Below, piece by piece: positions 3,032 to 21,830 of a DNA stretch of 26,821 bases. The notes under the pieces are model-generated. The model had not been told where the DNA came from. It worked only from the letters and a program-made list of their open reading frames with translations, and did no database searches. A program made the position numbers and the translations under genes. Each line of letters starts with the position of its first letter. The stretch's first letter is position 1. Source of the stretch: an uncultured virus (IMG/VR IMGVR_UViG_3300025961_000410) (lineage: Duplodnaviria; Heunggongvirae; Uroviricota; Caudoviricetes); IMG/VR virus record IMGVR_UViG_3300025961_000410; one strand, 5' to 3'.

Positions 3032-3343
3032 TCACTTGCACTCAAATTTGCAAGATTCGGAAGTACATTTCCATGCTACTGGCTTATCGTTAAGAATACC
3101 AGAGCATTCATTTACGTGACATGAAAACCCTAGAATGTTGTTGTCAAGAGCAAACTTAATTTCATTTTTGAAAGTCAGTTCCGCCTTCAAGTAATCGATT
3201 TCCCAATTCTGTCTATCGATTTTCCCATTCAGAGTGATTTGGTTACTGCTAACGTACCCATGCCATATGATACTTGAAATAAACACCCCAAAAACCAACC
3301 CACCAATTGAATGAATTACAATCTCTTTATCCCGCTTATCCAT
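3032..3343 (-). CDS. Membrane-anchored protein with Cys-rich C-terminus
   Basis: Hydrophobic segment IVIHSIGGLVFGVFISSIIW, then a coiled coil and five Cys in the last ~30 aa. Confidence 0.6.
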   Translation of the reverse strand: MDKRDKEIVIHSIGGLVFGVFISSIIWHGYVSSNQITLNGKIDRQNWEIDYLKAELTFKNEIKFALDNNILGFSCHVNECSGILNDKPVAWKCTSESCKFECK

Positions 3344-4478
3344 GTTTCTGTTCCCATCTACATTGATCCCAAGCTCTAATAAACCAACCCTCTATATCCG
3401 CTCGTTCAGAAACCTTTCCAAACATCTTAACAGTCTCGTCCCAAGATTGAATCATAGCATCGAGATGGTTATGAGTCAACGTCATTCGATCTTCAAACAC
3501 CTGGTGGGGAATCCCACTCCAATAAGGTACACACGGAGCTGATTTACCCTTACTGACCAGAGCTATCCGAAAATCTCTAGTTAAGGTTGTCAGTACTGTA
3601 TAGAAAAGTGAGTGGAAGTTTACCCCTTCTCTCCACCACTCATCAACGCTTTCATACCAGATGGCTGGATCAGACATCCCCTCAATCAAAGCACCAGCTA
3701 CTCGTTTATAGAGCAGAATTGATGGGTAACCTGTTACTGCCTCAAACAGTTCAGAATCTATTAGCTCACCATTAGCACAAGCAATTAACTGGTCCGCTAC
3801 CTGTTGCACATCTCTTAAAGAACCCTCAGAACTAATTGCTAACGATGTTACAACCTCTTGTTGTACAGGTTGCTTAGCATCAGCAAAAATCCTCTTCAAA
3901 CTTTCTTCTACATTGATTGGTGGAAGGGGTTTGATATTGTAAGTCTGACACCTAGACTTAATTGTAGGTTTTACCTGTTGTGGATCCGTAGTGCAAAGAA
4001 TTGGTAAAAAACTAGTTGGTGGAGATTCAAATAGAGCTAGTAAAGCGTTTTGTGCTTCGTTCGTAAGCATGTGACATTCGTCCAATATGACAATACGCCA
4101 CTTGCCTGGCTTTGGCATCTGATCAGCTATTGAACGAAGTGCCTTAGCATCGTCAATGCCTCGATGAGATGCTGCATCCATCTCAATCGTTTCAGTGCTG
4201 GCACCCTTTACTAGATCTTGACATTCTCCGCAAGTTCCACAAGGCTCAGGTTTTTTAACCCCTTCTTTCAACTGCCTTGGAAGATCGTCGCAGTTGAGAA
4301 CCTTAGCTAACAACCTAGCTAGAGATGTTTTACCAGTCCCTCTAGGACCACAGAATAAAAAAGCGTTTGCAATTCTGTTTTCACAAACAGCGTTTTGTAG
4401 TATTCTGACAGTAGCCGCTTGACCTAAAACTTCTGAAAATCTCTGTGGTCTGTACCGAATTGCTGATGCTTGGAACAT
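3336..4478 (-). CDS. dnaX: DNA polymerase III clamp-loader ATPase, gamma/tau-like (short form)
   Basis: RYRPQRFSEVLGQ, Walker A GPRGTGKT, zinc module LNC...PCGTCGEC, Walker B ILDECHML, SRC arginine finger. Confidence 0.95.
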   Translation of the reverse strand: MFQASAIRYRPQRFSEVLGQAATVRILQNAVCENRIANAFLFCGPRGTGKTSLARLLAKVLNCDDLPRQLKEGVKKPEPCGTCGECQDLVKGASTETIEMDAASHRGIDDAKALRSIADQMPKPGKWRIVILDECHMLTNEAQNALLALFESPPTSFLPILCTTDPQQVKPTIKSRCQTYNIKPLPPINVEESLKRIFADAKQPVQQEVVTSLAISSEGSLRDVQQVADQLIACANGELIDSELFEAVTGYPSILLYKRVAGALIEGMSDPAIWYESVDEWWREGVNFHSLFYTVLTTLTRDFRIALVSKGKSAPCVPYWSGIPHQVFEDRMTLTHNHLDAMIQSWDETVKMFGKVSERADIEGWFIRAWDQCRWEQKHG

Positions 4479-6496: not shown

Positions 6497-8679
6497 TTGT
6501 CTGACCATCTTTCAGATACTGCTGGTTCTGCTATCAAGGGTACGAGACATTCTGGGTATGCGTTTTCCATGGTGTCTTTAATTAGCCTGGTTGCTGGTTC
6601 TACATATCTATCTGCCGCGAAAAATCCTATGTCGTCATGAACCAACAATGCAGGTTGAATACCATCACCATCCTCAGATTTCAATACCAAAGGTATCTCA
6701 TGACGCTTAGCTTCAACAATGACGTCAGTAAACGCTTTACAGGCAAGGTCAGAAGCAAAACCTTGGATGATTGCATTTGGTCCCTGCCGCATAGCTTCAT
6801 CGACTTTTCTCTTCCGTCGATTCTGCTCTACTGCTAATATGCACTGACCAATCAATGGACAGGTTTGACACTTCTCAAACTTCCTGTTTCTTAAAGAGCT
6901 AGTCTGCTGCTGAAATATCGAAGTCTCTTGAAACATTGGTAGAGACTCTTTAAGATCAATACGATTGTAATGCTCTTTGAACAATGGAACTGAAGGACTC
7001 TCTTTAGTATCCCCAAAACACTTTGGGGCACCTTGTGGTTTGTAAACCTTAGGTGGTACCCACAACTGTGCATCTGGCAATCGCCTTCTTCTACCAATAG
7101 GGCTAACAACATAACCCAACTCGACTGACATCTTGTGGGTACTGTCAATCCAGTTTGCTAGAGTCGGCAAGCCTTTAAAGTAGTTGGCTAAGAACTCCCT
7201 TGCCTCATCAACAGAAATACCAAGGCTTTCTGCTAGACCATACTCCGTACTACCGTATAGTACCCCAAAGTTAACTCCCTTCGCTTTTGTCCTAATTGGC
7301 GCATGTAACTTCTTTACATCGTCAACATCACAATCAAGCTTAAAACAGGTTTTAGCAGTCGCTGAATGCAAATCTTCGTCATTTTTAAATGCTAAGATCC
7401 AGGCAGGTTCTTTACTAACATGTGCAGCTATTCTAAGCTCGATCTGAGAATAATCTGCAGTTATAAGCTTGAACCCAGCCGGTGGTATAAACATACTCTT
7501 AATAAGAGTTCCGCCATTTTCTGGTCGTGGCATATTCTGAACGTTAGGATCCTCAGATGCAAGTCGACCAGTCTTTGTACCATGAATCAAAAATCGAGGA
7601 TGAATTCTGACAGTCTTCTCATCATACCGATCTCTGATACCAATGACATAGCTCCCATGAAGCTTCTCAACGGATCTAGACTCAATCATCAACTCAATGA
7701 TTGGATGCTGCCCCTTTAGATTTTGAAGAGCTTCCTTATCTGTGGTGATAGTGTTTTTCTTACTCTTCTGTATTGGTAACCCTAGTTTGTTGTAGAGAAT
7801 GTCTGCAAGTTGCTGTGGGCTAGTAACATCAAATTTCTGACCAGCAGCTTCATGAATTTGAAGCTCAAGCTCAGCTTTACGATTGATGTAAAACTTGTCA
7901 AGTTCATCCAAACGTGACAAATCGATTGGCAATCCAGCAATTTCTGCCAGCATCGTTGATTGCTGGATTTGCATCGTATAATCGTAAAATAGATCTAATA
8001 ACCCCTGTTCCTCCATCTGCTGATAGAAGATTGGTTTAAGCTGTCTAGTGTAATCAGCGTCGCCACAAGCGTAGGGATACAGAATATCAGTGGGGATTGC
8101 TGTATACCGTCTATACTTTGGGTCGTAATACTCAAGAGCTTTTTGTAGATCTTGCTCGTACTGATTTGCTTTTGGATCTAGGTAATACGCAGCCATGGGT
8201 TTTAAGCCATGACGACAAGTCAGAATGCCTTCCTCATCCAAAAGATGATGAGCCAGCATGGTGTCAAAGGTAAAACCTCTTACCTTTATCTTCAAAACCT
8301 CCCAAATCCAGGTCATATCGAACTTAAAATTCTGACCACTCTTCTCGCTATTGTCGTCTTCTAAAAAATTCCTCAGCTTCTCTTTGACAAGATTGAAAAC
8401 CCTGGGATCCTTCCAGGTAGTGTTCTTATCGATACCAGTATACAATGGTAGGTATGCAGCTTCATTGGTTGCCCAACTAAACGACATACCACCAATTACT
8501 ACATCAGATCGGGGAAACTTGGGAGCACTATCCGAAGTGGGGTGGTTGGTTTCAATATCTACTGAGGTGTCAGATGAGTTCCCTAATACTGAAAACAACC
8601 AATGAAGCTTCTTTGGGGAATCAACTAAGGTGAACTTCTTAGTAGCTCCAGCATTCAACCATTTATGATCTTGCTGCAT
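6493..8679 (-). CDS. polA: Family A DNA polymerase (3'-5' exonuclease + polymerase, no 5'-3' nuclease domain)
   Basis: ExoI DIET, ExoII QNFKFD, ExoIII YACGD; TGRLASEDPNVQN; motif A ADYSQIELR; motif B RTKAKGVNFGVLYG; motif C VHDD. Confidence 0.96.
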   Translation of the reverse strand: MQQDHKWLNAGATKKFTLVDSPKKLHWLFSVLGNSSDTSVDIETNHPTSDSAPKFPRSDVVIGGMSFSWATNEAAYLPLYTGIDKNTTWKDPRVFNLVKEKLRNFLEDDNSEKSGQNFKFDMTWIWEVLKIKVRGFTFDTMLAHHLLDEEGILTCRHGLKPMAAYYLDPKANQYEQDLQKALEYYDPKYRRYTAIPTDILYPYACGDADYTRQLKPIFYQQMEEQGLLDLFYDYTMQIQQSTMLAEIAGLPIDLSRLDELDKFYINRKAELELQIHEAAGQKFDVTSPQQLADILYNKLGLPIQKSKKNTITTDKEALQNLKGQHPIIELMIESRSVEKLHGSYVIGIRDRYDEKTVRIHPRFLIHGTKTGRLASEDPNVQNMPRPENGGTLIKSMFIPPAGFKLITADYSQIELRIAAHVSKEPAWILAFKNDEDLHSATAKTCFKLDCDVDDVKKLHAPIRTKAKGVNFGVLYGSTEYGLAESLGISVDEAREFLANYFKGLPTLANWIDSTHKMSVELGYVVSPIGRRRRLPDAQLWVPPKVYKPQGAPKCFGDTKESPSVPLFKEHYNRIDLKESLPMFQETSIFQQQTSSLRNRKFEKCQTCPLIGQCILAVEQNRRKRKVDEAMRQGPNAIIQGFASDLACKAFTDVIVEAKRHEIPLVLKSEDGDGIQPALLVHDDIGFFAADRYVEPATRLIKDTMENAYPECLVPLIAEPAVSERWSDK

Positions 8680-8945
8680 TACTCAGACTTCGACTTCTTA
8701 GGTTGAGTTCGATTGGGAAAGTTTGCATCACTATCCATCTGCTTGTTGAATACAACCCTTTTTGAAGCTGGATCATAAAGATCTTGTGACACAGCTCCAC
8801 AGTCAGGGTTTTTACAAACTAACTGTCTTTCAACCGCAGTACCATGTCGATACTGAGCTCGACACATCATTGGTTGCTTCTCACAAGTAGGACAAAGAAC
8901 AGTAGTCTCGTAAGGTTTAAAACCATCAGATAGATCAGGCATCAC
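8679..8945 (-). CDS. Zinc-ribbon protein
   Basis: CPTC...CKNPDCG; overlaps both neighbours. Confidence 0.65.
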   Translation of the reverse strand: MMPDLSDGFKPYETTVLCPTCEKQPMMCRAQYRHGTAVERQLVCKNPDCGAVSQDLYDPASKRVVFNKQMDSDANFPNRTQPKKSKSE

Positions 8946-9529
8946 TTCCTCAACTGTTGGCTAAGAAGTCGTTGAAATTCAGTCTTCACACCTGGATCAG
9001 TCTCAAACAGACCTCTGACATCTAAGGTAATCGCAGTGCTTTGAGTCTGCAAAATACCTCGGCAAGTCATACAGTTATGCTTACCATTCATGTAAAGAGC
9101 TACACCCAAAGGATCGACATACTTAACGAATGCTTCTACCAGATCATGCGAAACAGTTTCCTGCATAGCTGGTCTAGCAGCAAACATTTTAATTGCTCGG
9201 GCTAACTTTGAGAGTCCAAGTTTCTTATCCCTTGGTAGATAAGCCAAAACGGCTTCAATTTCTACAGGCAAAAGATGATGTGGACAAACACCATGAGCAA
9301 TTACAGGACCGACCTGGATAATGCCCTTGTAGGGTGAATCAAAAGTCTTTCCAAAGATTTTTGCAATATCATCAGTCTCTATATACAGTCCCGAACAAAG
9401 CTCCCTAAAAGCTCTAGCAACTCTAGCGGGAGTTTCAGTGAAATTATCATCTTCTAGATCCACCCCCAGCCCCTTTAGGAGAAGATCGATACCTGCTTCA
9501 CATTGCGCTTTATTGTAAACGTGTTTCAC
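8942..9529 (-). CDS. folE: GTP cyclohydrolase I
   Basis: ETPARVARAF, CPHHLLP, GLSKLAR, QE, HNCMTCRG. Confidence 0.96.
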   Translation of the reverse strand: MKHVYNKAQCEAGIDLLLKGLGVDLEDDNFTETPARVARAFRELCSGLYIETDDIAKIFGKTFDSPYKGIIQVGPVIAHGVCPHHLLPVEIEAVLAYLPRDKKLGLSKLARAIKMFAARPAMQETVSHDLVEAFVKYVDPLGVALYMNGKHNCMTCRGILQTQSTAITLDVRGLFETDPGVKTEFQRLLSQQLRK

Positions 9530-11289
9530 TGATTGATTCCCTTACATTCTTCGTAAACTGTCTGACAAAACTCACCTGTACAGATTCCAGGTTCATGAGT
9601 TCCAAAACATTCTGGTTTCTCTACTACTACATCTAAATGAACTTCTTGCATACCAGATAAATCCAACATCTGAGGCTTAGACGTCTTCTTTACCTTAGGT
9701 TGTTTTGGCTCAGTTAATAATACTTTCGGGACCTTTGGAGCCTTGGGAATCTCGATTAAATGGTGATCGAAGATTGCTGAATTATCTTTTACTGGCTCAG
9801 TATCAACATCTTTTGTTTCTACAGTATCTGACGTTGGGCAAGGGAGAGTTAGACTTTCTTCTTGCAGCTCTTCTGGAGCTGGTACGACAGGACTAAGTCC
9901 GCTAACAACTTCCTGATCAGTAACTTCTGATGAACCATTGATAAGATCAGTATTAAGTTGAGTTGCCAGAGCTTGAATCGCAGGAATGTCTGAAAAAGAA
10001 ATCGAGCCCACCAGCTTTGGCCCTTTTGGTGGCTTAACCTTCACCTTACGTGGTAAGCCTGTCTTTTTACTGATCTTTGGTGGTGCTGGGGTATCATCTC
10101 TAATTGCAGCCTGCTCTTTTAACTTGCTTGGTTGAACAAAAAGTGAGTCAAACTCTGCTTGAACTTGGCTGACAACAGTCCTTTGAAACAACTTTGCATA
10201 ACGTTCAGTAGCAGCTAAATAACCCATTGATCGACAATCATCGATGTAATGCAAAGCCATAAACGATGCCTTACTGCAATGATCTTGAACATACTTGAAA
10301 TACCTATGCTTGTCGTCACGAAGAGCTTCTAACTTCTTGTGGCGCTCAATCATTAAACACAGGTTGTGCATAGAAATGACATGACCACCCGCTTGAGGGT
10401 GTCTCATCGCAGTGCTAAAGTCATAACCATTCTCCAGAATGTGGGTACAGACTGGACATGAACAAGGTGGTTTCTTCAACCCATGCCATGATTGTAACCT
10501 ATCACCAAACGTTAGCTCTTCACCCTTAGCTACATCATAGGGCATGATATACGTTCTCGTGGTATAACCAGAAGCATACGAAGAACTATCATACACCAGT
10601 CGATCAAAGAACTGTGCCCCATATACTAGCAGGGGTTGAACATTCCAACCAGACGTTCCTAGAAAGTGGGTATATCCTGTATGCCCCATGTGCATCAAGA
10701 ACCCCATCATCCTAGCCTGCCCCATTACATCGCCAGAAGGATGAAAACCTACTGACCAACCATTCTTACCGCGGTAGGTAAACTTCGACAGTTCTTCATA
10801 CCACCGAACAGTTCGGTCGTAAGTATGACCATGCAAAACGTTTAACATCCTCAGCTTATCAGAAACCATATTGTCCTGAAAGAACTGAGCATTGTCAATC
10901 GTATCTTTTAAGCCCTGTTCGTAAGTTGCATCATCGTGTTCAGCACCAATTGGGGTATCGATGATGAAAGCACAATCGCCATTTCGTTCCTGCCATCGCA
11001 AGATTTCCAATGGCTCGATATCAATCTTCTTACCAGCCTTCATATTCTGGTGAATTTGAAATCCACCTGAATCCGCCAGAACATAGGTTTCTTCTGGAAT
11101 ACCTAAATGTTTCCTATGCTCTGGCTGGTCTTTAGATGTGAAGGCGTTACTAAGCAAATGAGGGTGATAAAAGATTGAGTCCGGGTGATACCAACACCAC
11201 CATTTTCCAGGTTTTCCTAGAATATCCTCACACTTCAAAAGCTTAGCATCTACGAAGATGACAGGATAATACGACGAGTTGCTAGCCAT
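9526..11289 (-). CDS. TGT-fold guanine transglycosylase (DpdA-like, probably acting on DNA) with a long C-terminal tail
   Basis: LADSGGFQ, IIDTP, VLHG, HFLG, YDSSSY nucleophile motif, zinc site CSCPVC...HNL. Lies next to folE and polA. Confidence 0.85.
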   Translation of the reverse strand: MASNSSYYPVIFVDAKLLKCEDILGKPGKWWCWYHPDSIFYHPHLLSNAFTSKDQPEHRKHLGIPEETYVLADSGGFQIHQNMKAGKKIDIEPLEILRWQERNGDCAFIIDTPIGAEHDDATYEQGLKDTIDNAQFFQDNMVSDKLRMLNVLHGHTYDRTVRWYEELSKFTYRGKNGWSVGFHPSGDVMGQARMMGFLMHMGHTGYTHFLGTSGWNVQPLLVYGAQFFDRLVYDSSSYASGYTTRTYIMPYDVAKGEELTFGDRLQSWHGLKKPPCSCPVCTHILENGYDFSTAMRHPQAGGHVISMHNLCLMIERHKKLEALRDDKHRYFKYVQDHCSKASFMALHYIDDCRSMGYLAATERYAKLFQRTVVSQVQAEFDSLFVQPSKLKEQAAIRDDTPAPPKISKKTGLPRKVKVKPPKGPKLVGSISFSDIPAIQALATQLNTDLINGSSEVTDQEVVSGLSPVVPAPEELQEESLTLPCPTSDTVETKDVDTEPVKDNSAIFDHHLIEIPKAPKVPKVLLTEPKQPKVKKTSKPQMLDLSGMQEVHLDVVVEKPECFGTHEPGICTGEFCQTVYEECKGINQ

Positions 11290-11513
11290 TACTTAACCAG
11301 ACTCAAGTAAGAAACGTTAGGCTTAATACGTTTAACAACTTTTCGAATTTCTTTTGCCTTATCTTTTGATCGTTTAATGATCAACTGGTGTAACGCCTCA
11401 GCAACTACCTGTTCTGGAGTCAGTTCCATATCGACTATCAAATCAGTTAAAACCATTCTATCAATCGGTCGAAGTCTTAGCAGGGTTACTGGATCTAAAT
11501 GCTTTGGTTTCAT
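11289..11513 (-). CDS. Small basic protein, possibly ribbon-helix-helix
   Basis: VTLLRLRPIDRMVLTDL...EQVVAEALHQLI pattern; overlaps both neighbours. Confidence 0.55.
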   Translation of the reverse strand: MKPKHLDPVTLLRLRPIDRMVLTDLIVDMELTPEQVVAEALHQLIIKRSKDKAKEIRKVVKRIKPNVSYLSLVK

Positions 11514-12295
11514 AGTCTGATTGTGTTATAAATACCAGTAGGAGACTTAGCTGAAAAGTGTAAATCAGTTCCTACAACTTCAGCTTTGACATCATCAAAA
11601 CCCCACCGTTTCATCAGGAAAGTTGCGAGATGCTTTCCCCATAGGCTCTTATGCTGTGGATAATCACTTGAGAATAAGAACGGGCACAAAGTACCGTTGA
11701 CAATCGTATTATAGCGTTCATAGTCATAGACTAATCGAGATTGATGTTCAGCCTTTTCTTTGGCTGATTCTGCTCTAATCTCTTCATCAGATTTCTCCTG
11801 CATCAAAGTAGAGGGATTAACATAAGTGTCCACTTTCACCCTCCTTTGGGCATTATCTTCTACGGTTCTCCATGCTTGAACAGGAAATTCAAGATCCCAT
11901 TCACTGTGCATGGCTTGCCACATGTAGACCAACCTATCAAAATCTGGGACCACATGAAGCATAGTTCCAACCCCTGGCTTCAGTAGTCTTTGAAACTCTC
12001 CAAATAATTCGTAGGCAACTGCTGGATGAAAATGTTCCATCCAATGCGCTGAATATATCTCATCACAACTTCCAGCTTCAAAAGCTGAGAGATCTTGAGC
12101 TGATCTGAGCTTTACGAACTTTGTAGCATTAGCAACGTCGGATTCTTGTCCAGGCTTAACCCAAACTCTAGCCTCACCAAGTTCATCTTCTCTACTCAAA
12201 CGATTCCAAAACAGCTTGACACAATCTGGAACCCAAACATCAGCATTCGTCCAACCATCTTTAAGACAAGTTCCAGCACCCAAATGCAATTTCAT
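11510..12295 (-). CDS. Class I SAM-dependent methyltransferase
   Basis: Motif I KLHLGAG...GWTNAD; CDEIYSAHWMEHF; RLLKPG; VVPD. Confidence 0.85.
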   Translation of the reverse strand: MKLHLGAGTCLKDGWTNADVWVPDCVKLFWNRLSREDELGEARVWVKPGQESDVANATKFVKLRSAQDLSAFEAGSCDEIYSAHWMEHFHPAVAYELFGEFQRLLKPGVGTMLHVVPDFDRLVYMWQAMHSEWDLEFPVQAWRTVEDNAQRRVKVDTYVNPSTLMQEKSDEEIRAESAKEKAEHQSRLVYDYERYNTIVNGTLCPFLFSSDYPQHKSLWGKHLATFLMKRWGFDDVKAEVVGTDLHFSAKSPTGIYNTIRL

Positions 12296-12315
12296 CTCTT
12301 TTTAAACTCCTATCG

Positions 12316-12389
12316 TGGGACCGGTCGGGTTCGAACCGACAACCGCCCGGTTATGAGCCGGGAATTCTAACCAATTGAATTACAGTCCC
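12316..12389 (-). tRNA. tRNA with CAT anticodon (probably Ile2/lysidine type; elongator Met possible); CCA not encoded
   Basis: Cloverleaf: acceptor GGGACTG/CGGTCCC, D stem ATTC/GAAT, anticodon arm CCCGG-CTCATAA-CCGGG, T arm GTCGG-TTCGAAC-CCGAC, discriminator A followed by CGA. Confidence 0.93.
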
Positions 12390-12399
12390 AATCAATCAA

Positions 12400-13134
12400 T
12401 CAAACTTCAGGATCTGCTGATAACAAAACTCCAGCCTCTACGAAAGCATTCAATATTCGATTGTTTCTATCTTCACTGTAACTACCATTCTTTGCTTTTC
12501 TTAGGTACTCTTTTGCGATTGGCGAGCACCATACATCTTGAGCATAAACTTCGAAAATACCATTATTACAAAACGCTACCGCTCTACGAAAGCATGCTGG
12601 GCAGTTGCCACATTGTCTGTTTGATCGTGGTTGATAGCAAGCAACAGTAGCTTTTAGAATCTCTATCTTGTGTCCACGCTCGATACCTAGCTCTGTGTCT
12701 AGGAACCACTTGATCATCTCTGTTTTATCATGCTCTGGAAAGACAGGATCTAAGATTATTTTTCGATTAAACAGGTAGCTCAGAGTTTTTTCTGCTAGTC
12801 CAAAAAAGTAGATAGAACGGTCAGGTATAGATCTCTCATCTTTTTGGCAGACCACCCCAATATGATCATAACCATTGATGGCTGCAGCGAAAGCTAGCTG
12901 GAAGTTTCTACCAGGAATTTCCGCATCTTCCTTTTCAAACTGACCTAAGTTTGAAAGCAAATCAATATCAGTTACTTTCAGTTCAGGAGTAACATCTTCA
13001 AGGTTTTTTGTAGCATTAAGTTCTAGTCCTTCGTAGCGATGTCCCAAAGAACAGTACAGAGCAGCTGGCTTACCCATCCTAAACCAACCAATAAGTGAAT
13101 CAACTCCACCAGAAAAAAGAATGCAGTTTGTCAA
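12400..13134 (-). CDS. queC: QueC-family ATP pyrophosphatase (stand-alone, divergent)
   Basis: PP-loop LFSGGVDS, IPGRN, zinc motif CY...CGNCPACFRR. TTG start in a TTGA overlap. Confidence 0.88.
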   Translation of the reverse strand: MTNCILFSGGVDSLIGWFRMGKPAALYCSLGHRYEGLELNATKNLEDVTPELKVTDIDLLSNLGQFEKEDAEIPGRNFQLAFAAAINGYDHIGVVCQKDERSIPDRSIYFFGLAEKTLSYLFNRKIILDPVFPEHDKTEMIKWFLDTELGIERGHKIEILKATVACYQPRSNRQCGNCPACFRRAVAFCNNGIFEVYAQDVWCSPIAKEYLRKAKNGSYSEDRNNRILNAFVEAGVLLSADPEV

Positions 13135-13547
13135 GTTAGCAAACCTTCCACTACTAAGTTTTGGATAGGCGTGAGTGGTGAGCCTGAGACGTCCAAGTCC
13201 AAGATTCCCTTAATGAGGTTACCGCAGACATAGGAACCAGTTCTAACTAGTACGCCATCCTCAACAACACTATCAACAACTCTGCAACCTATACCAGTAA
13301 TCAACTTTCCTGGTACATGTTGATTTTCAACTGCAACATAATTTGGCAGCCTATAAACCCCATCATGATCAGCGAATAGTTTATACCTTTCACTGGTTGG
13401 TGTTCTCGATGGTAAAAGACCTATGTTTTGGATCCAGATTGACGGGTAATGCTTACCAAAAGAATAGACTCGTCTTACCTCATTTGGATCAACTACTAAT
13501 TGACTAGCAACTGCTACTAGCCCAGTTAAAAACGATCGTCTTTGCAT
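13131..13547 (-). CDS. Hypothetical protein with a twin-arginine-like N-terminus
   Basis: Starts MQRRSFLTGLVAVA. Confidence 0.65.
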   Translation of the reverse strand: MQRRSFLTGLVAVASQLVVDPNEVRRVYSFGKHYPSIWIQNIGLLPSRTPTSERYKLFADHDGVYRLPNYVAVENQHVPGKLITGIGCRVVDSVVEDGVLVRTGSYVCGNLIKGILDLDVSGSPLTPIQNLVVEGLLT

Positions 13548-13820
13548 TTAATGCTCCGTTGAACCAAGATAACCAGACCTTAGCTTACACCACTCTGCTA
13601 CTGAAAAAGTTGTAAGCAAACCATCACCGGGTTCCGATACTTCACCTTCTTCGTTTAGCCAGATGCTAACCATCTTCTCTAATTTTACCATATCAGCTTC
13701 GGTGAAAGCACAGTCCTCTTCTACAACATCGAGGCCTAAAGTTTCAGATAGAACTTTGTTAGCAGCATCAACAGAATCAGCAATAACATAATCACAGTCG
13801 TTGTAATAAAGGTTTGGCAT
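13548..13820 (-). CDS. Acidic hypothetical protein
   Basis: 90 aa D/E-rich ORF abutting its neighbours. Confidence 0.65.
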   Translation of the reverse strand: MPNLYYNDCDYVIADSVDAANKVLSETLGLDVVEEDCAFTEADMVKLEKMVSIWLNEEGEVSEPGDGLLTTFSVAEWCKLRSGYLGSTEH

Positions 13821-13823
13821 AGT

Positions 13824-15539
13824 CTATCGAACCTTTTGAACTTCCATCACCAACTCTTCAATGCTATAAGGACTAGGTTTGATAGCATCGTTCCACCATG
13901 GTGGAAGATCTTTTAAAGGTGCTGCATAAAGCTGTGGGTCTAGTAAACCAGCCCGCTTATAGGCAATCCTACGGGTATGGCAACATCCGCAGGTTCCACA
14001 AGGAATGTGGGCTCTTTGATGGTTAACCTTTTCTCTATCGTGATCTTTATTCCACTCTGCATTAACATAAAAGTCTAAGCTCTTCACAGAGTTTTCGTAA
14101 AATTCATTGTTAGGGTAGCGATCCTTAACAAAAACCCCTGAAGTATCGCAGCTCCAAGTTGCTTGCATCGGAACCTTCAGGTGGTGAGCTAAACGAATGT
14201 TGTCAGTCTTCATCAACCTGGCAATTGACAACCTACTCGTAACCCTTGTCTGCGTTCCAAACTCAGCAAAAGCATCAAATCGCTTAAAAAACTCTATAGT
14301 ATTGTCACTATAAGAACCAGATTCTTCAAGGTTAAACCCAGAATAGATACTTGAATAACCTTGCCCTTCAGCAAATGCAGCAGCTAAGGTTAGAAACACC
14401 ATATTCCTAGCTGCAGTCCAACAAAGTGTAGATTCAGAGCTTCTAAACCCTTGAGGGATCTCATCACCATTCTTGATCAGTGGACTAGTTGAATGCCATT
14501 TTCCAATATAGCTGGCATCAACGAAAACTGCTTTACATTGTAGTTCTTCAGCAACTACATTTACAGCTTCTTTTTCTCTTTCAACAGCTCGTTGCCCATA
14601 GTCCATATGAAGAAGAGTTACTTCATTTCCTTCCAGCTTAGCTGAAACGAAGGCTGCTAATGAACTATCCAAACCACCAGAGCAGATAACTAGCGACCTC
14701 TTAGAAGATCTAGCTGGCAAACTTGCTAAGATCTTGTTTTCAAGTTTCCAGTAGTGTTCGACCCCTCCACCATCTAGACTAAAGCCACTATATGCGGGCA
14801 TATCAAACCATCGAATATGAGGGTCTAGCCAATCTCTTCGACCATCAGCAACCTCAATGTTCTTTGCTTCGCTATTGTAAAGAAGATAATCGTTTACCTT
14901 AAGATCTGGATCTTCTTCATCCTCATCAGAATGAACCCATGCTAAGGTGAGTGGTTTAAAGTTACGAAAAAGATGTAGTGTGCCTGGGGACCTTGAATCA
15001 ACTAAAGCACAAGCGAAACCACCAGCAACCTCATGCAATAAATGTTGAATAGTCGATATCGACATCTTAACCGAAGTCTGCAATCGTTGACCAAACGTCT
15101 GATAATGTCGGTACAACCTGGCTAAAACTTCACTATCAATCCCAGTTTCATTCTTAAGATGAAACTTCTCCTGCAGAAGATCATCTTCTGGAAACGTTCC
15201 GTTGTGGGTTAGAATTACACCATCAACATAAATGGGTTGTCTTGCTAACTCATTTACTGAATCTGGCTGTTGAAGAGGCTGATATCGGTTATTGCCTACG
15301 ACAATGCAATTCTCAGAGAGATGCGTTGCTAAAAAAGCATAAAGAGATTCTTCACAAATTGAAGCTCTTTCAGGAGATCTGAAGACATCAACCCTGGGAG
15401 TAGGGGTTGGGTGGATGATAATTACGCCAGTACCATCTCGACCCCTATCCTCACCAGAAATGGCCATTCTGGTGATTTTCTTAGCTAGCTGGTCAATATC
15501 AGAACAACGATTAACCTTAGCTCCAAATATGCAACACAT
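13824..15539 (-). CDS. Gat-QueC fusion (class II glutamine amidotransferase + QueC), archaeosine-synthesis type
   Basis: Likely start ATG 15539 gives M-C-C-I-F-G (N-terminal nucleophile Cys). GATase-II motifs RGRDGTG, HNG, DSEV. QueC motifs CSGGLDS, YGQR, ARNMVFL, WSC...CGTCGCC. Confidence 0.92.
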   Translation of the reverse strand: MCCIFGAKVNRCSDIDQLAKKITRMAISGEDRGRDGTGVIIIHPTPTPRVDVFRSPERASICEESLYAFLATHLSENCIVVGNNRYQPLQQPDSVNELARQPIYVDGVILTHNGTFPEDDLLQEKFHLKNETGIDSEVLARLYRHYQTFGQRLQTSVKMSISTIQHLLHEVAGGFACALVDSRSPGTLHLFRNFKPLTLAWVHSDEDEEDPDLKVNDYLLYNSEAKNIEVADGRRDWLDPHIRWFDMPAYSGFSLDGGGVEHYWKLENKILASLPARSSKRSLVICSGGLDSSLAAFVSAKLEGNEVTLLHMDYGQRAVEREKEAVNVVAEELQCKAVFVDASYIGKWHSTSPLIKNGDEIPQGFRSSESTLCWTAARNMVFLTLAAAFAEGQGYSSIYSGFNLEESGSYSDNTIEFFKRFDAFAEFGTQTRVTSRLSIARLMKTDNIRLAHHLKVPMQATWSCDTSGVFVKDRYPNNEFYENSVKSLDFYVNAEWNKDHDREKVNHQRAHIPCGTCGCCHTRRIAYKRAGLLDPQLYAAPLKDLPPWWNDAIKPSPYSIEELVMEVQKVR

Positions 15540-15540
15540 G

Positions 15541-15867
15541 TCACTTAAACCCAATCTTAAAAGAAATGTCGACTACTGCTTTACCACTAGATTTGAAGAA
15601 TACAATTGTTTCTTTGTGAGTGGGAAGATTATGTTGATTTTCTTGATAAAGATCTTTTACTACTTTTTCTGCTAGTTGCTGGTCTTCAAATGCGTAGTAA
15701 TTAGCAGCACTATAAGTACCTGTAGTTGGTGGATCATTGGCATCCCACCCAGCTTCACAATAAGTCCGATCTTCAAAAATCAATATCGCATAGTGCGGGG
15801 TTGAAGGAATCTCAGAAGGCTTCTTAAGATGCTTTCGTAAATCGTCGTTGTAGTGATAACTGGACAT
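15541..15867 (-). CDS. Hypothetical protein
   Basis: 108 aa ORF abutting its neighbours. Confidence 0.65.
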   Translation of the reverse strand: MSSYHYNDDLRKHLKKPSEIPSTPHYAILIFEDRTYCEAGWDANDPPTTGTYSAANYYAFEDQQLAEKVVKDLYQENQHNLPTHKETIVFFKSSGKAVVDISFKIGFK

Positions 15868-16188
15868 TCAACCTCTCCAAACTTCTCCAGCTTCTTTTGC
15901 TGCTGTACCATACTTTAAACTGTCTTGAAAACAGACACTAGCTTGTTCTATTTTACCTTCTAATCTTGCTACTTCTGCCACTGCCATTTGCTGTACTGAC
16001 AGGTAATACAGTGAAGGTTGTTTATCAATTTCTTGGCCAGGTCGATACTGATTCCAAACTGTGATCTGAAGCTTTTTAGGAACCATTCTCCAATGCTTTA
16101 GACACATAAACATCTTTGGTGGAACTTGCTTAGTGCAATCAATAGCATGGCAAGTATGATTCATAGTGTTTCGACAAATCTCAATCAA
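15868..16188 (-). CDS. Zinc-finger phage protein
   Basis: HTCHAIDC...MFMCLKHWRMVP (C-x4-C...C-x2-H pattern). The true start may be the internal Met. Confidence 0.65.
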   Translation of the reverse strand: MIEICRNTMNHTCHAIDCTKQVPPKMFMCLKHWRMVPKKLQITVWNQYRPGQEIDKQPSLYYLSVQQMAVAEVARLEGKIEQASVCFQDSLKYGTAAKEAGEVWRG

Positions 16189-16378
16189 TCACAAAGCCCA
16201 ATGAGCGTAAAGAAAGTTCGCTAACCAAGTAAATCCGTTCCCCAACTTTGTAGTCTGTTTTATCCATATTCAGTATCATCACTTCCACTAATTTCGAATT
16301 GGTGAGGGCTGAAAACTTAACCGCAACTCCACCGGGAATATCTTCGACAGAAGATACGGTTAGCCATTTTACTTTCAT
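16181..16378 (-). CDS. Hypothetical protein
   Basis: 65 aa beta-rich ORF with an ATGA overlap. Confidence 0.55.
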   Translation of the reverse strand: MKVKWLTVSSVEDIPGGVAVKFSALTNSKLVEVMILNMDKTDYKVGERIYLVSELSLRSLGFVID

Positions 16379-16560
16379 AGCTCTTCGTCTTTCTCTATAG
16401 CTGAGGCATACTCTTCAGCTGGTTGCCAATCTCCCACAACTTCATCATGGTGATTTAGCCTACGAAACTTACCGCAATCTTTGCATACTTCAGATCGATA
16501 TGAACCATACCTTCTTGGTATGTCTTCGCCTCGAACTGTTTTCGTATGTTGACAACTCAT
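16375..16560 (-). CDS. Small zinc-binding protein
   Basis: CxH...CxxC (CQH, CKDC); ATGA overlaps. Confidence 0.6.
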   Translation of the reverse strand: MSCQHTKTVRGEDIPRRYGSYRSEVCKDCGKFRRLNHHDEVVGDWQPAEEYASAIEKDEEL

Positions 16561-17306
16561 AGCTTCAAAGGTAGGTAAAAGCTGTGGCTTACGACACCAT
16601 GTGGTACAGTTTCAATGTGTTGATAACCGTGGCTTTCAACTAATTGCCTAACACGTTCTGGAATCGAAGTGTCTTTAAACGTGTGGTTTTCTACTGAAAT
16701 TTTTGGACGAAGAGTTTTAATGAGGTTTTCAGCACCTTTTAGAACCTCTACCTCAGCACCCTCTACATCCAGCTTCAACCAATAGGGTCGACTAACAGAA
16801 AAATCAAAACCTTCCGCAATGAAATCTTCTAGCCAGGTGTCAAGCTTACTAACCTTAAAAATTGGCTTCCCAACTCTTTCTTCTAAGCTAGGTGCTATAG
16901 AGTAGAACTGCTGTGACATCACATCTAGCCACCCATCCCTGCTATACAGTCCTGTATTAAATAACCTAGCTCTGTCTTGCCAACCATTTAAAGCTAATGA
17001 CTCTTTGAGGAGCTCAACTTCAGTTAACTCATCGATCCCACCTTCTAGAGACCAACTAAAAGTTTTTTCTGCACCTTGTGCCAACGCTGCTAGAGTATAG
17101 CTTCCATAGGCAGCCCCAACATCAAAAATCCATGCACCATTCTCAATATGCCAGACACGATCTCTAACTTCTTGTTCATCGTCGTGAGTATACCAACTGG
17201 GGTGCAAAGAAGACAATACCGTTGGCTCAGTGTAACACCTAAACTGATACTGGTATTCTACTACAGAATTCTTGACAACTTTTAGTCTGTTTTCCATTTG
17301 TTTCAA
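16557..17306 (-). CDS. FkbM-family SAM methyltransferase
   Basis: IFDVGAAYGSYTL; KLDVEGAEVEVLKGA; RPKISVE. Confidence 0.9.
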   Translation of the reverse strand: MKQMENRLKVVKNSVVEYQYQFRCYTEPTVLSSLHPSWYTHDDEQEVRDRVWHIENGAWIFDVGAAYGSYTLAALAQGAEKTFSWSLEGGIDELTEVELLKESLALNGWQDRARLFNTGLYSRDGWLDVMSQQFYSIAPSLEERVGKPIFKVSKLDTWLEDFIAEGFDFSVSRPYWLKLDVEGAEVEVLKGAENLIKTLRPKISVENHTFKDTSIPERVRQLVESHGYQHIETVPHGVVSHSFYLPLKL

Positions 17307-17312
17307 TTGGTT

Positions 17313-18524
17313 TCACGTGTCAGAAATTTGTCGATGGATGTAATGCTCGATCGAAACTCTACCTTCATAGATGGATTGAGCGTCAGCATGAGTAGCCCAA
17401 TAGCAACGACAATTGTGCTTCTCAACCATTTCTTTAGTACGTTTCTTGTACTCTTCAAACCTGGCAGATAGTTCCCAACCAAAGACTGGAGTACTAGGCA
17501 CATCCAAGTCATACGACTGTGGAAGCAGTCTTAACACCTTTTTGTTACCATCCCTTACTACTTGCTTTCCAAGTCGTTCAGGACTAACTCTAGCATGGTC
17601 CTTTGGTGTATCCATCTCTGGTGGAAGAAAATCATCGCATGGTCGAATCACACAATTTGGATCCACCGTAACAAACCCTAAAAAGCCACTTTCCCCTTGA
17701 CAGCACTGCCAATCCATCTTTGGTCCATGCTTTTTCATACCAATCAATGATTCAACCGATGGATGAATCAAATAACCCCCAGACTTCATCGCTATGACTT
17801 GGTCAATTGCTTCGTTCAAAATCTGAACGTCTTCATCAGACTCAAACATAAGACCAGTCAAATCTACATGACGTTCAACCTTACTATAAGGTTGACCTCG
17901 ATTTGAGTGAATCATATCGAAATGCAGCCAGACATTTTTATCTGTCATGACCTTAATTAGCTCTGGAAGAACTGCTACATTCTTCCTGGTTAAGGTCATA
18001 CAGCCCTCAGCATCCCGCATCTGAGAACCATACTTCTCAACCCAGTACTTCAAAAACTGCCAGGCTTTGTTCGTCTTAACCTTACTTGAAACAGATGAAG
18101 TCTGATCATCAGCCAGGCCATCAACCGACATCGTCAATGATCTAAGACCAGAATTCCACCATAAATCTAGAATGTCTGTCGTAAGCCCAACACCAGACGT
18201 AATCACAGATGTTGGAATCTTAACGATATTCTCTGCATAATGAAGAAAACTAGCAACTCTGTTAGGTACTTGGGCAGGCTCTGCACCATACAAAGCTATG
18301 AACTGCGTTCCCAACTCTGATAAATTATCAAGAGTTCTGAACCACTCATCCATTGTTGCTTCTTCAGCATCAGCTTGATTGTTGTCGGTAACCCCATTTT
18401 CGTCAACTCTGAAAATAGAGCACCCGGAACATCTAAGAGGGCATCTTCTGGTAAAAAGAACCTCTGCTTTTGTTAGCGCTGGCTTACCCTTATGAGGTCC
18501 ACTCTCAATCAAACGTTGAGACAT
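17313..18524 (-). CDS. Radical SAM enzyme with C-terminal auxiliary Cys cluster (twitch/SPASM-like)
   Basis: CPLRCSGC (CxxxCxxC), YGAEP, ITSG, SVDG; C-terminal CC...C..RPCDD...CRC. Confidence 0.88.
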   Translation of the reverse strand: MSQRLIESGPHKGKPALTKAEVLFTRRCPLRCSGCSIFRVDENGVTDNNQADAEEATMDEWFRTLDNLSELGTQFIALYGAEPAQVPNRVASFLHYAENIVKIPTSVITSGVGLTTDILDLWWNSGLRSLTMSVDGLADDQTSSVSSKVKTNKAWQFLKYWVEKYGSQMRDAEGCMTLTRKNVAVLPELIKVMTDKNVWLHFDMIHSNRGQPYSKVERHVDLTGLMFESDEDVQILNEAIDQVIAMKSGGYLIHPSVESLIGMKKHGPKMDWQCCQGESGFLGFVTVDPNCVIRPCDDFLPPEMDTPKDHARVSPERLGKQVVRDGNKKVLRLLPQSYDLDVPSTPVFGWELSARFEEYKKRTKEMVEKHNCRCYWATHADAQSIYEGRVSIEHYIHRQISDT

Positions 18525-18808
18525 TATTTCCCTCTCTCAACTCCATCTTTAGGTTTAGCTGGAATCTCAAGGATAGCCTGCTTCTTCAACCTACCACAGC
18601 AGCTGATTACTAAGGTTCTCAAGCTATGTGCAACTACTCCTTGTCGGCCAATGACCTTACCAATATCGTCATCATGAACCTTCAGAGTAAATACCACAGT
18701 ATCCGCAGTTCCAGCAATCTCAACCTTTACCTCATCTGGAAAGTCCACCAACAGCATAACCAAATCTTCAAGAATCTCACGAATCGAATCAACACGAGTA
18801 TCAGCCAT
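18524..18808 (-). CDS. khpA: KH-domain RNA-binding protein, KhpA-like
   Basis: LVDFPDEVKV...LKVHDDDIGKVIGRQG (GxxG loop)...LRTL. Confidence 0.88.
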   Translation of the reverse strand: MADTRVDSIREILEDLVMLLVDFPDEVKVEIAGTADTVVFTLKVHDDDIGKVIGRQGVVAHSLRTLVISCCGRLKKQAILEIPAKPKDGVERGK

Positions 18809-18811
18809 AAA

Positions 18812-19528
18812 TCAAGCCTTTCGAACAAGCGTATCTGCAGTTGGCATTTCAAGTAGCTTCTCTTCAATCAACTTAGCTAACGTCTTTTCGAATGTCTTTT
18901 CTGAACTCCAACCCTTAGCTGCAACTTTAACCCAAATATCATTTTTGGGAGTTTCTACCGATACCTGAAGATTGGAGAGAATGTAATGACCCTGAGAACC
19001 AGGCTTATAACTGCCTATAGCTTCTTTAGAGACTTGCTCTTTTGGCTCTTTAGCAACTACTACTGTGGCATTCTTTGGGGCTTTAACCTCTACTGATTCA
19101 GTAAGAGGTTTAGCCAATTCAGCCTCTTTTAGCTTTTCTTCTGAGATACTCTCTTCAACCAATGTTGGAGCATCTTTTTCCACCAATAGACCCTGCTTAG
19201 CTTTAATTGCTTCCATTAGCTTAGCATATGTAAGCTGTTTACAAAAAGCCTTAGATTTCTCGAAATTATAGGGTTCGTCTGGAGCTAGTCCAACCCCCAT
19301 TCTAGCACCGAGGAAGCATTTACAAATCCAATGAATAGAGCAGACTGGCTCGCTACCCTCTGGAGGAACGTCAGGGTTGCACATATGCACGTTTAACAAT
19401 GCATCAGAAAAGCAAGGCACCTGATTTAACCTCTCAGGGTTTAAATTCAATCGAGAGAATTGGTTTACCTCATCTAGAATTGGTAACGTCAGTTTTACTT
19501 TAGGCGCAATTTCCATCAGATTCACCAT
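18812..19528 (-). CDS. Hypothetical protein: Cys-rich N-terminal domain, charged linker, wHTH-like C-terminus
   Basis: VPCFS...HMC...VCSIHWICKC; C-terminus SEKTFEKTLAKLIEEKLL. Confidence 0.6.
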   Translation of the reverse strand: MVNLMEIAPKVKLTLPILDEVNQFSRLNLNPERLNQVPCFSDALLNVHMCNPDVPPEGSEPVCSIHWICKCFLGARMGVGLAPDEPYNFEKSKAFCKQLTYAKLMEAIKAKQGLLVEKDAPTLVEESISEEKLKEAELAKPLTESVEVKAPKNATVVVAKEPKEQVSKEAIGSYKPGSQGHYILSNLQVSVETPKNDIWVKVAAKGWSSEKTFEKTLAKLIEEKLLEMPTADTLVRKA

Positions 19529-19902
19529 TTCTTCCCGTTTACTTCTGAAAAGACCCTATCTCCAACCATTTTCTTAACATCCTCTGGATTGTTTTCCGGA
19601 ATTTTCCCAGGAACGACAATCATTCCCTTTAAAGTCACTGTACGTTTCAACGATTCACATCTTCCACAACGCCAAACAAGCTCACCACCACCCCAACGCT
19701 TATACTCAAAGCCAGTTGGTGTAACTTGAACCTGTAGAACTTCGTCTTTTGCCTTACCTACTGTTTTGCAGTATCGATTACAAAACTCGCAGGGCAAACC
19801 TACTACTGAACTTGTTTCTGATAGCTCTGCATTTACTGGAAATACCTTATGTGGTTCGTACTTAACAATTTCAGATTCGTCAGGAATAACTGGATTTAGC
19901 AC
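19522..19902 (-). CDS. Zinc-finger hypothetical protein
   Basis: CEFC...CGRC; GTG start. Confidence 0.6.
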   Translation of the reverse strand: MLNPVIPDESEIVKYEPHKVFPVNAELSETSSVVGLPCEFCNRYCKTVGKAKDEVLQVQVTPTGFEYKRWGGGELVWRCGRCESLKRTVTLKGMIVVPGKIPENNPEDVKKMVGDRVFSEVNGKKW

Positions 19903-19926
19903 TAATCAATTCTACCAGAGCTAGAG

Positions 19927-20331
19927 TTAAAGATTCTCTCCGTTTGGGACTAGTATGATTCCAAGTCTGTTGCATTCATCAGTCACCCTAATAACGTCAG
20001 CTCTATTATCAGCTCCAGCTTCTTGAGCTTTAGCTAACAATTGGTACTCACGGTGGAGTTCTCGTGATTTCTCTTCTAGACCAGCTGGACAGTGTTTCAA
20101 CTTTCTAACTGGAGCTCCAATTCGCATTGCTTCCAATGTTCTTCCATCCCAACCACAACGATCTATAACTTCTTCAACTTTAGCATCGATTTCCATCAAC
20201 TCGATTAAAGGTGATAGCCTTCGTTCGATATATTCTGCTACGTCAGAGCTAGAAGAATCAATAGCTGCAATAAATGAAGCCATGCTAAGAGCTAATTCAC
20301 GTAGCTTCTCATTGGGTTTATACTCAGACAT
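19927..20331 (-). CDS. Hypothetical helical protein
   Basis: 134 aa ORF in the same operon orientation. Confidence 0.65.
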   Translation of the reverse strand: MSEYKPNEKLRELALSMASFIAAIDSSSSDVAEYIERRLSPLIELMEIDAKVEEVIDRCGWDGRTLEAMRIGAPVRKLKHCPAGLEEKSRELHREYQLLAKAQEAGADNRADVIRVTDECNRLGIILVPNGENL

Positions 20332-20333
20332 AT

Positions 20334-21089
20334 TTAAACGCCCTTCTTATCATTCCAGCGAAGTACATGAAGACGGGGACTAAAGTTTACACCATACTCG
20401 ATTGCTAGATCAATCACAGCTAGCATTCGTTCTAGCTGAACTTCTCTAGTAACACCTTCTGGCATAATGTACATCCGTTTCCTCAGTTGGTTAGTATCCG
20501 AGTCTGGGATTGCCTTATGCAGTAAAGCTAGCGCTTCAACCACATCATCAGCAGAAACCACTACAAACTTAAAGATCGCACCTAATCCGTACAGCATTGA
20601 CAAGGAGGTTGCTGATACATAAAAAGGTAGCTTCTTTGCATACTCATCGGAAAGATCTCCCATCCCTGCTAACTTAAGTTTAGGAGAGCAGTTAAACTGC
20701 AACCCGCTATGAGCAGCCATAGCTAAAAATCGATTGGGAGCATGAGTACCTTCTGTCTCCACTTCAAAACAGAACCCTTCACTAAACAGAGCTTTTATCA
20801 GCTCTTGAAAGTAAGGTTTATCTTGATGCAACAATGGCTCCCCACCAGTTATGATAAGTCTTCTTGCTTTACCAGCAACTAAGAAATCTACCTGCTCTTG
20901 AACAGACATTTTCCTAGTCTCAATCATACCCGGTTTCCAAGTCTGCTTGGAGTCACACCATGAACATTCTCGATGACATCCAGTGTAACGGATAAAAGAG
21001 CAGAGCTTGCCTACAGTTGATCCTTCTCCCTGAAGTGTATCTGTATAAATTTCAGTAATCGGGGCTTTTAGACTACTCAAATCAGTCAT
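20334..21089 (-). CDS. queE: 7-carboxy-7-deazaguanine synthase (radical SAM)
   Basis: EIY.TLQGEG, FIRYTGCHRECSWCDS, ITGGEPLL, VETEGT, SPKL, PRLH. Confidence 0.94.
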   Translation of the reverse strand: MTDLSSLKAPITEIYTDTLQGEGSTVGKLCSFIRYTGCHRECSWCDSKQTWKPGMIETRKMSVQEQVDFLVAGKARRLIITGGEPLLHQDKPYFQELIKALFSEGFCFEVETEGTHAPNRFLAMAAHSGLQFNCSPKLKLAGMGDLSDEYAKKLPFYVSATSLSMLYGLGAIFKFVVVSADDVVEALALLHKAIPDSDTNQLRKRMYIMPEGVTREVQLERMLAVIDLAIEYGVNFSPRLHVLRWNDKKGV

Positions 21090-21829
21090 AGAGATTGCTC
21101 TTCATAAATTGCTGAATTATCAGTACCATCTTCAAAACACTCTACTTTAACAACTCTAACCCTATTCAAAGAATCTATCAAAACTCTACCACCGATCTGC
21201 TTGAATACAAATTCAGCAAACTTCTCGCAACCCACCCCTCCCTCAAAAACTCTAAGGACTAAGCCAAAAGCTGATTCTCCATTTTTAAACCATTCGAGGA
21301 GTGGATCGTCACCTGCAACACAGGTCTTATGATCAAAAGTTTCCGCTAGAAAACTTTTGATACCATTATCTTTAAAGCTACCAAAATCCGCCACCCAATT
21401 CTTGTCATCTAAGGTTTTTGCAGCAAACCAAACCTTAAATGACAGGTGGTAACCGTGGACAAACGAGCAATGGCTTTTCGCACGCCATTGTCTAAATGCT
21501 ACTGAGCCAACTTTAAACGTCTTGGTAGACAGATATCGATAACCCTGCAACTTACTTCCTAACGAAGCTTTGCTGGATTCAATGGCTAGGAAATCTCTTT
21601 CGATTTTAACCTTTGCCTCTAAATGACGTAGTGGCAACCCTTCAATAAAGGCCTGTTGTGCAACAACATCTTCTTCCAAATTTGGATATACAGGATCATG
21701 TTTTGGAGTTTTTGCAAGAGCTGTTTTTCTAATCTCAAGAATTTTCTTAGATGACTCTAGGTCGACTAGATAATCTGCATGCAATAATTCTAAAGCTTCT
21801 GTGCGACTAACCGAATCAGTAATTCCCAT
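21086..21829 (-). CDS. queD: 6-carboxy-tetrahydropterin synthase with a ~90 aa N-terminal extension
   Basis: STKTF...AFRQWRAKSHCSFVHGYH, WVADFG, FDHKT, GCEKFAE. Probable start ATG 21829, just after the upstream TAA. Confidence 0.9.
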   Translation of the reverse strand: MGITDSVSRTEALELLHADYLVDLESSKKILEIRKTALAKTPKHDPVYPNLEEDVVAQQAFIEGLPLRHLEAKVKIERDFLAIESSKASLGSKLQGYRYLSTKTFKVGSVAFRQWRAKSHCSFVHGYHLSFKVWFAAKTLDDKNWVADFGSFKDNGIKSFLAETFDHKTCVAGDDPLLEWFKNGESAFGLVLRVFEGGVGCEKFAEFVFKQIGGRVLIDSLNRVRVVKVECFEDGTDNSAIYEEQSL

Positions 21830-21830
21830 T

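Follow-up and report, generated by a model that had tools for sequence, protein, structure and literature searches.

A conserved four-cysteine module before helix Q in the family A DNA polymerase of a group of uncultured large phages

The family A DNA polymerase (PolA) of an uncultured tailed phage carries, within its polymerase domain, a module with four cysteines that, from their spacing and conservation, very probably bind a metal. This Cys4 module is real, defines a branch of phage PolA enzymes and has apparently not been described so far. The favoured reading, to which we give a probability of about 0.5, is that the metal centre braces a basic lobe and a lengthened helix Q on the downstream DNA, likely aiding strand displacement in a clamp-equipped replisome. 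The stretch of DNA analysed, hereafter the window, comprises 26,821 nucleotides. It forms the end (26.8 kb) of a virus record with a length of 150,821 bases, in which a scan of 85 proteins recognised genes for terminase, portal, major head and tail fibre. Features are collected in Table 1.

Table 1. Positions in the window of the polymerase, its insert and the associated genes
Feature	Positions	Strand	Basis
PolA, family A DNA polymerase, 728 aa	6493..8679	minus	PF00476 E 1e-89, PF01612 E 6e-17, Klenow alignment, AlphaFold2
Insert region D536-D627: proline-rich arm, small helical lobe, N-terminal helix Q extension	6799..7074	minus	Klenow alignment, spacing count, AlphaFold2
C554, distant first cysteine in P-x-C-aromatic context, likely metal ligand	7018..7020	minus	45/45 and 4/4 new inserts
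C604-x2-C607-x5-C613, three clustered cysteines, likely metal ligands	6841..6870	minus	45/45 and 4/4 new inserts
R631, counterpart of R841 in E. coli Pol I, on which the template pivots during strand displacement	6787..6789	minus	45/45; Klenow alignment (position 517 of 8oo6_A)
Motif C HDD, H681-D683, sporadic HDE variant with catalytic D682 retained	6631..6639	minus	alignment, position mapping
DnaX-like clamp loader subunit	3336..4478	minus	domain search; 21/23 records
DnaN-like (beta) sliding clamp	22821..24053	minus	PF00712, phrog_947, solved beta clamps; 22/23 records
DnaG-type primase of conserved replication operon	25376..26311	minus	domain search
Deazaguanine cluster, accessory, between clamp and PolA	8942..21853	minus	domain searches; not found in 21/23 insert-bearing records
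FolE	8942-9529	minus	domain search
TGT/DpdA-like	9526-11289	minus	TIGR00432 E 8e-10; 'TGT domain' proteins of Vibrio phages
QueC	12400-13134	minus	domain search
Gat-QueC, second QueC	13824-15554	minus	domain search
QueE-like radical SAM gene	20334-21089	minus	domain search
QueD	21086-21853	minus	domain search

The polymerase, its insert and the four cysteines

PolA consists of a 3′-5′ exonuclease and a polymerase domain, the 5′ nuclease domain being absent. The PF00476 match lies above the cut-off and motifs A, B and C are present. Residues D409, K467, H681 and D682 are invariant in the 26 top relatives, and the exonuclease DxE residues D41 and E43 are kept at 90% or more in the PolA alignment. 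By its sequence the protein is a proofreading family A enzyme, for which polymerase activity is predicted. Identity with DpoZ, the aminoadenine polymerase, was rejected, the NCBIfam scores being 104.7 bits against a cut-off of 500 and 21.5 against 350. The HDD reading of motif C that the initial annotation singled out is present, but it is not a family trait: HDE occurs in 40 of 44 enzymes, HDD in three and HDS in one, and an enzyme 78% identical to the window PolA (P0002) has HDE. Judged from this alignment, the variant is incidental.

Directly before helix Q, the window PolA exceeds Pol I by 81 residues. Counted from the G of GRRRRLP, the N of NAIIQG lies 106 residues away. In most of the bacterial Pol I matches on which the search pattern could be read this spacing is 25; on many rows the pattern failed. 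In agreement, the HMMER alignment to Klenow (8oo6_A) stops at query residue 537 and restarts at 632. The insertion of about 80 residues first noticed in the fingers region is thus real, and all four cysteines fall within the interval 6810-7060 originally assigned to it, the clustered ones being encoded at 6868-6870 (C604), 6859-6861 (C607) and 6841-6843 (C613) on the minus strand.

The cysteines are conserved throughout the relatives of this enzyme. Among the best 120 of 4010 whole-protein matches, the top 26 were chosen regardless of the insert, and all of them, at 35-100% identity, carry the four cysteines (in P0020 the first is shifted in the alignment); since the choice ignored the insert, the motif is not due to chance. 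A profile built from 26 inserts and scanned over the collected PolA-like sequences matched 55 of 300, and comparison of the last 60 residues leaves 45 distinct sequences. Each of the 45 retains P552, R631 and all four cysteines, and 41 retain E618. Later scans gave 22 profile matches among 229 PolA frames, four of them new and all four with the motif, so that all four cysteines are present in 49 of 49 distinct inserts; the profile-found inserts are partly selected for cysteines, while the first 26 relatives are not. The most distant insert-bearing enzyme (P0032) is 29% identical to the window PolA. The conservation of the cysteines in homologs, the lack of which the initial annotation would have taken as a refutation, extends to enzymes at 29-35% identity. 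The residues between the cysteines are variable, the gap from the first to the second ranges from 37 to 53 residues, and outside the insert cysteine makes up 1.4% of residues.

On the alignments, a frameshift and chance cysteines were rejected. An intein or homing endonuclease was likewise rejected, as the insert is found in all members of the branch and no such Pfam family occurs among the 26 inserts. The Pfam search of these inserts gave no family common to more than one of the 26, and the insert profile found nothing below E 1 among PDB sequences. All 18 matches of the profile among 3720 longer candidates are PolA.

The CX2CX5C arrangement of the three clustered cysteines is also used by Endonuclease III/MutY and SPASM. 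With the distant cysteine included, the spacing C-xn-CxxC-x5-C is that of the iron staple in all 49 inserts; the resemblance to the 4Fe-4S staple of AddB and Cas4 that was originally pointed out agrees with the published CX248CX2CX5C of Dna2/AddB (PMC3439918). A distant cysteine followed by CX2CX5C binds 4Fe-4S in Dna2, AddB and Cas4 (PMC3439918, PMC3466216) and likewise in Nbp35 (PMC8514734), and the same 1+3 arrangement holds Zn in one crystal structure, that of a staple-type nuclease of the DUF3799 family (PDB 3L0A; PMC3466216). In E. coli, Zn may also be acquired through mis-loading (PMC3466216). Conservation and spacing together support the original suggestion of a conserved Cys4 module near the incoming template, probably with Fe-S or Zn. 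By analogy with these sites, a 4Fe-4S cluster is moderately favoured over Zn.

Predicted fold and position at the downstream DNA

The AlphaFold2 model of PolA, computed from 23 sequences, has a mean pLDDT of 89.1, with 74-90 per 10-residue block over residues 531-630, and the insert modelled alone reaches a mean of 86.8. The predicted elements are an extended arm, helices 563-570, 580-584, 586-596 and 599-606, and a single helix 610-659, at the start of which CxxC-x5-C is located. The span between the first and second cysteines is predicted as coil and helices, with no strands. Helix 610-659 contains R631, N635 and Q639 and is therefore the equivalent of helix Q, about 20 residues longer. The models accordingly predict a folded helical lobe capping a lengthened helix Q. 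Fold searches have little power with apo models of this size, and their negative results do not establish a new fold: Foldseek against the PDB gave no match at E 0.001, BFVD gave none, the best VIA-align Z was 3.7 among 48,161 chains, and ESM Atlas gave a feature score of at most 0.84 and a TM of at most 0.44.

According to the Klenow alignment, the insert presumably replaces the segment D827-E840 of E. coli Pol I. R631 would be the equivalent of R841, assuming a numbering offset of 324 for position 517 of 8oo6_A. In the E. coli enzyme the template is bent over R841, which acts as a pivot (bioRxiv 2022.08.02.502465), and S831 and R836, both belonging to the replaced segment, touch the downstream duplex (PMC6846080). 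Elements at this face are described for other family members: the strand-displacement (SD) loop of Mip1 lies at the N-terminus of helix Q, an extended helix Q serves strand displacement in Bst polymerase, and a fingers insertion of T7 polymerase near the downstream DNA binds the helicase (PMC11897208). The position of the F771 wedge is aromatic in 34 of 42 cases. The net charge of the insert, flanks counted, ranges from +1 to +9 and is positive in 45 of 45. Individual basic positions are kept only to a moderate degree, nine columns having 50-67% K/R, and the lobe surface differs much between the two sub-branches. By analogy with these elements, action of the insert on downstream DNA is given slightly better than even odds.

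Branch, replication genes and deazaguanine genes

In a tree of 79 sequences with the insert columns removed (nine near-duplicate or partial insert rows omitted), all 36 insert-bearing enzymes fall on one branch and none of the 43 others falls within it (FastTree support 0.97). The IQ-TREE SH-aLRT values are 71.8 for the whole branch, 100 for a core of 34 and 90.2 for P0020 with P0032. The simplest reading of these sequences would be a single gain of the insert, with no loss seen. The loop before helix Q tolerates other inserts: the polymerases of Dp-1, phiCTP1 and YS40 (L002:304-2643, L003:319-2616 and L004:433-2544), and likewise P0004 and P0005, have about 60-70 residues there that are poor in cysteine; the YS40 enzyme also has a C-terminal CxxC...CxxC. 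The deep-branching P0020 (L100:5833-8220) comes from a GC-rich locus; its motif C reads HDS, and it has a further CxxC...CxxC at the C-terminus. Three intein-like insertions are found at three distinct sites of the polymerase domain in P0010, P0015 and P0018.

The near-complete insert-bearing records measure 158-212 kb. A tblastn search with the window insert as the one query sequence gave no match among 50,697 phage records, and the window clamp matched no cultured phage. No insert was seen in 80 GTDB loci (a scan of 6 of the 64 GTDB parts), and a GTDB scan with P0032 gave no match. The Cys4 module is a marker of large, uncultured phages that form a group with an uncommon set of PolA, clamp and loader.

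The genes for PolA, a DnaB-like helicase, a DnaG-type primase, the clamp, a DnaX-like loader, RecA and SbcD form a conserved operon. The clamp family matches PF00712, with phrog_947 in eight of ten members and a best E of 2e-5 to solved beta clamps. It occurs in 13/13 of the first insert-bearing records, 10 of which supplied the rows of the clamp profile itself, and in 9/10 further ones; the loader occurs in 12/13 and 9/10, and each of the two in 9/9 near-complete records. This co-occurrence with the insert reflects the shared descent of one phage group and does not by itself imply that the insert acts for the clamp. PolA may use the phage clamp. In the PolA and insert alignments no conserved clamp-binding motif is apparent by eye, and a QETSIF-like stretch of the insert, considered as such a motif, was rejected because it is not conserved. 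A DnaB-like helicase and a 5′-3′ exonuclease are each encoded in four of five insert-bearing records, so that these phages need not rely on strand displacement by the polymerase.

Several other genes of the window deserve mention. The clamp and the DnaX-like subunit are diverged, and no delta subunit was recognised. Two unannotated genes between loader and RecA (457-1587 and 1618-2598, minus), conserved in 8/12 and 9/12 loci, are candidates for an SSB or a recombination mediator. An unannotated gene for a 317-aa protein lies between primase and clamp (24046-24999, minus), a position occupied in 10/12 loci by a gene of like size that is sigma-like by eye. The phage also has its own copies of a KhpA-type KH protein (18524-18808), Cpn10 (26363-26707) and NADAR (22390-22824), all on the minus strand.

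The initial annotation had proposed that the insert possibly adapts PolA to modified guanine or recruits partners, and had named an insert equally common in phages without deazaguanine genes as a result that would refute its reading. In 21 of the 23 records with the insert, the searches recovered no such genes. QueC, QueD, FolE and the DpdA-like protein are each present in 2/13 of the first records, and QueC and QueD in 0/10 further ones. For QueC and QueD the totals are 2/23 records, 1/9 at 90% completeness or more and 0/6 with direct terminal repeats; the 23 records include several near-duplicates and 14 that are incomplete, and the QueC and QueD family models matched in 10-13 of 14 control genomes. 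The window DpdA-like query gave no match at E 0.001 in 11/13 insert-bearing records, and a weak match in G010 (E 0.007) was dropped, as it runs antisense to a DUF3310/TSCPD gene. In other loci the clamp and PolA genes are one to three genes apart (the clamp of L100 was assigned by eye, Pfam giving none), which indicates that the deazaguanine cluster is a later arrival between them. From these counts and the locus order, the insert is older than the modification genes and independent of them.

An adaptation of PolA to 7-deazaguanine-modified DNA is therefore very improbable, even though the window PolA gene abuts FolE and the TGT/DpdA-like gene and the two que-positive records (G001, whose polymerase is identical to the window PolA, and G002) are the only two from the window's own sub-branch. 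Dp-1 is itself a deazaguanine phage (PMC6884629), with an unrelated insert at the same polymerase site. The DpdA models are insensitive, PF01702 missing the window gene and TIGR00432 the G002 gene, and a lone diverged DpdA could thus escape them in members without que genes. Against these points stand the low counts and the late arrival of the cluster, as well as the reports that base exchange in DNA is the most likely activity of DpdA and that the modification does not block polymerases (PMC6884629).

Neither Pfam nor PHROGs picks up the TGT/DpdA-like protein of the deazaguanine cluster, which has a long low-complexity C-terminal tail. Two methyltransferase-like genes (11510-12295 and 16557-17306, minus) and a second radical SAM gene (17313-18524, minus) lie inside the cluster, and several genes of the 11510-18524 region are common to L006. 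Together with the second QueC, these genes suggest a deazaguanine derivative beyond preQ0/G+.

Possible roles of the module and known systems

In the favoured reading, the metal would connect the arm, at C554, with the beginning of the long helix. Arm and helix, once tied, would form a rigid basic extension that would hold or bend the duplex ahead of the active site. The extension would thereby aid strand displacement, or primer removal together with the separate 5′-3′ exonuclease.

The main rival places a docking site for a helicase or SSB at the same face and is not exclusive of a role on downstream DNA, with which it is compatible. In its general form the metal-stapled lobe would serve as a dock for a component of the phage replisome, be it helicase, SSB, primase or clamp loader, much as gp4 is bound by the 'front basic patch' of T7. 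We consider it unlikely as the principal role, though it has the T7 precedent of helicase binding by a fingers insertion near downstream DNA (PMC11897208) in its favour. The conserved operon of helicase, primase, clamp, loader and RecA surrounding the PolA gene is in line with docking, and a variable lobe surface on an invariant cysteine core would fit co-variation with a partner, but the uniformly positive net charge suits DNA equally well. A further point against docking is the place of the clamp, which is on the product duplex, at the opposite side of the polymerase.

More doubtful still is a purely structural Zn site that would stabilise one of many lineage-specific insertions at a tolerant loop, would have little influence on catalysis and may mask PolA from host defences that sense phage polymerases. 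The cysteine-poor inserts of similar length in Dp-1, phiCTP1, YS40, P0004 and P0005 are compatible with such a site, Zn replaces Fe-S in a staple-type nuclease (PMC3466216), and a defence targeting polymerases has been proposed (PMC11348598). However, the absence of any cysteine loss in 49 inserts down to 29-35% identity, together with the invariance of P552 and R631, argues for a function under selection, and E618 is kept in 41/45. Disulfides, or cysteines that bind no cofactor, have very little probability: the 1+CX2CX5C spacing agrees with known metal sites, and replicative enzymes work in a reducing cytoplasm. The favoured reading remains a metal centre bracing a basic extension on the downstream DNA.

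If this centre is a 4Fe-4S cluster, PolA would be a family A polymerase with such a cluster inside its polymerase domain, where downstream DNA bends and splits, in a phage replisome whose clamp and loader are of bacterial type. We hold it tentatively, at somewhat less than even odds, that this is an independent invention and a compact, possibly redox-sensitive strand-displacement module. To our knowledge, Fe-S-bearing replicases are otherwise limited to eukaryotic B-family enzymes. It is established that B-family polymerases of eukaryotes, primase, helicases and glycosylases contain Fe-S clusters (PMC8514734), and whether the role of these clusters is structural or redox is debated (PMC3466216). 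A single-chain PolA with a removable 81-residue Cys4 module would offer a simple system for the role of a cluster in a replicase, and the site of the insert governs strand displacement, a property sought in enzymes for isothermal amplification. Searches of the open-access literature brought up no account of a cysteine-bearing insertion within the polymerase domain of a PolA. The main text of the 2023 reclassification (PMC10201439), in its accessible form, contains none of the words 'zinc', 'cysteine', '4Fe' or 'iron', and the accessible part of PMC11348598 none of 'zinc', 'cysteine' or 'clamp'.

Several known systems share one feature or another with this polymerase. The insert resembles the iron-staple nucleases AddB, Cas4, Dna2 and Exo5 in its distant cysteine and CX2CX5C, and has a proline after the second clustered cysteine in 26 of 45 cases. 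Unlike them, it has no RecB nuclease domain, and its cysteines span a helical lobe of 37-53 residues, compared with 248 residues in Dna2. The fold searches, a weak test with small apo models, listed no iron-staple nuclease. On the sequence evidence the insert would work like a staple at the metal site only and is not a member of these nucleases.

Endonuclease III and MutY have an Fe-S loop spaced CX6CX2CX5C. The insert shares with them CX2CX5C in a K-C-x-x-C-P context but differs in the first gap, 37-53 residues against 6, and their Pfam family gave no match among the 26 inserts at E up to 1. In these enzymes a basic element held by the cluster contacts the DNA backbone (PMC8514734).

An added domain is also seen in the phage PolAs fused to a uracil-DNA glycosylase (UDG) (PMC10201439, cluster 17; PMC13697223). 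There a whole enzyme domain lies in the N-terminal half, whereas the window enzyme lacks a UDG domain and has its site within the polymerase domain. One insert-bearing phage encodes a stand-alone cysteine-rich UDG (L413:2161-2790, minus; PF03167 E 2e-24), family-4-like by eye. Family-4 UDG can carry 4Fe-4S.

The replicase gene combination itself has precedents, PolA with polIII-beta and polIII-gamma being reported in the large phages RSL1 and Ma-LMM01; no insert is described there in the accessible text (PMC3201878). With Klenow-type Pol I of E. coli and Bst, the window enzyme shares the exonuclease and polymerase fold, motifs A, B and C and the equivalents of R841 and F771, but it differs by the absence of a 5′ nuclease, by 81 additional residues with a Cys4 site and by a clamp and loader of its own. 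In position, there is a likeness with the downstream-DNA face of other family A enzymes, where the SD and Catcher loops of Mip1/Pol gamma, helix Q of Bst and the T7 patch are likewise basic elements. The Mip1 SD loop occupies the same position as the phage insert, at the N-terminus of helix Q, and the Catcher loop lies elsewhere in the fingers; unlike the phage module, each of these elements is a short loop or hairpin, for which the accessible description mentions no metal site (PMC11897208).
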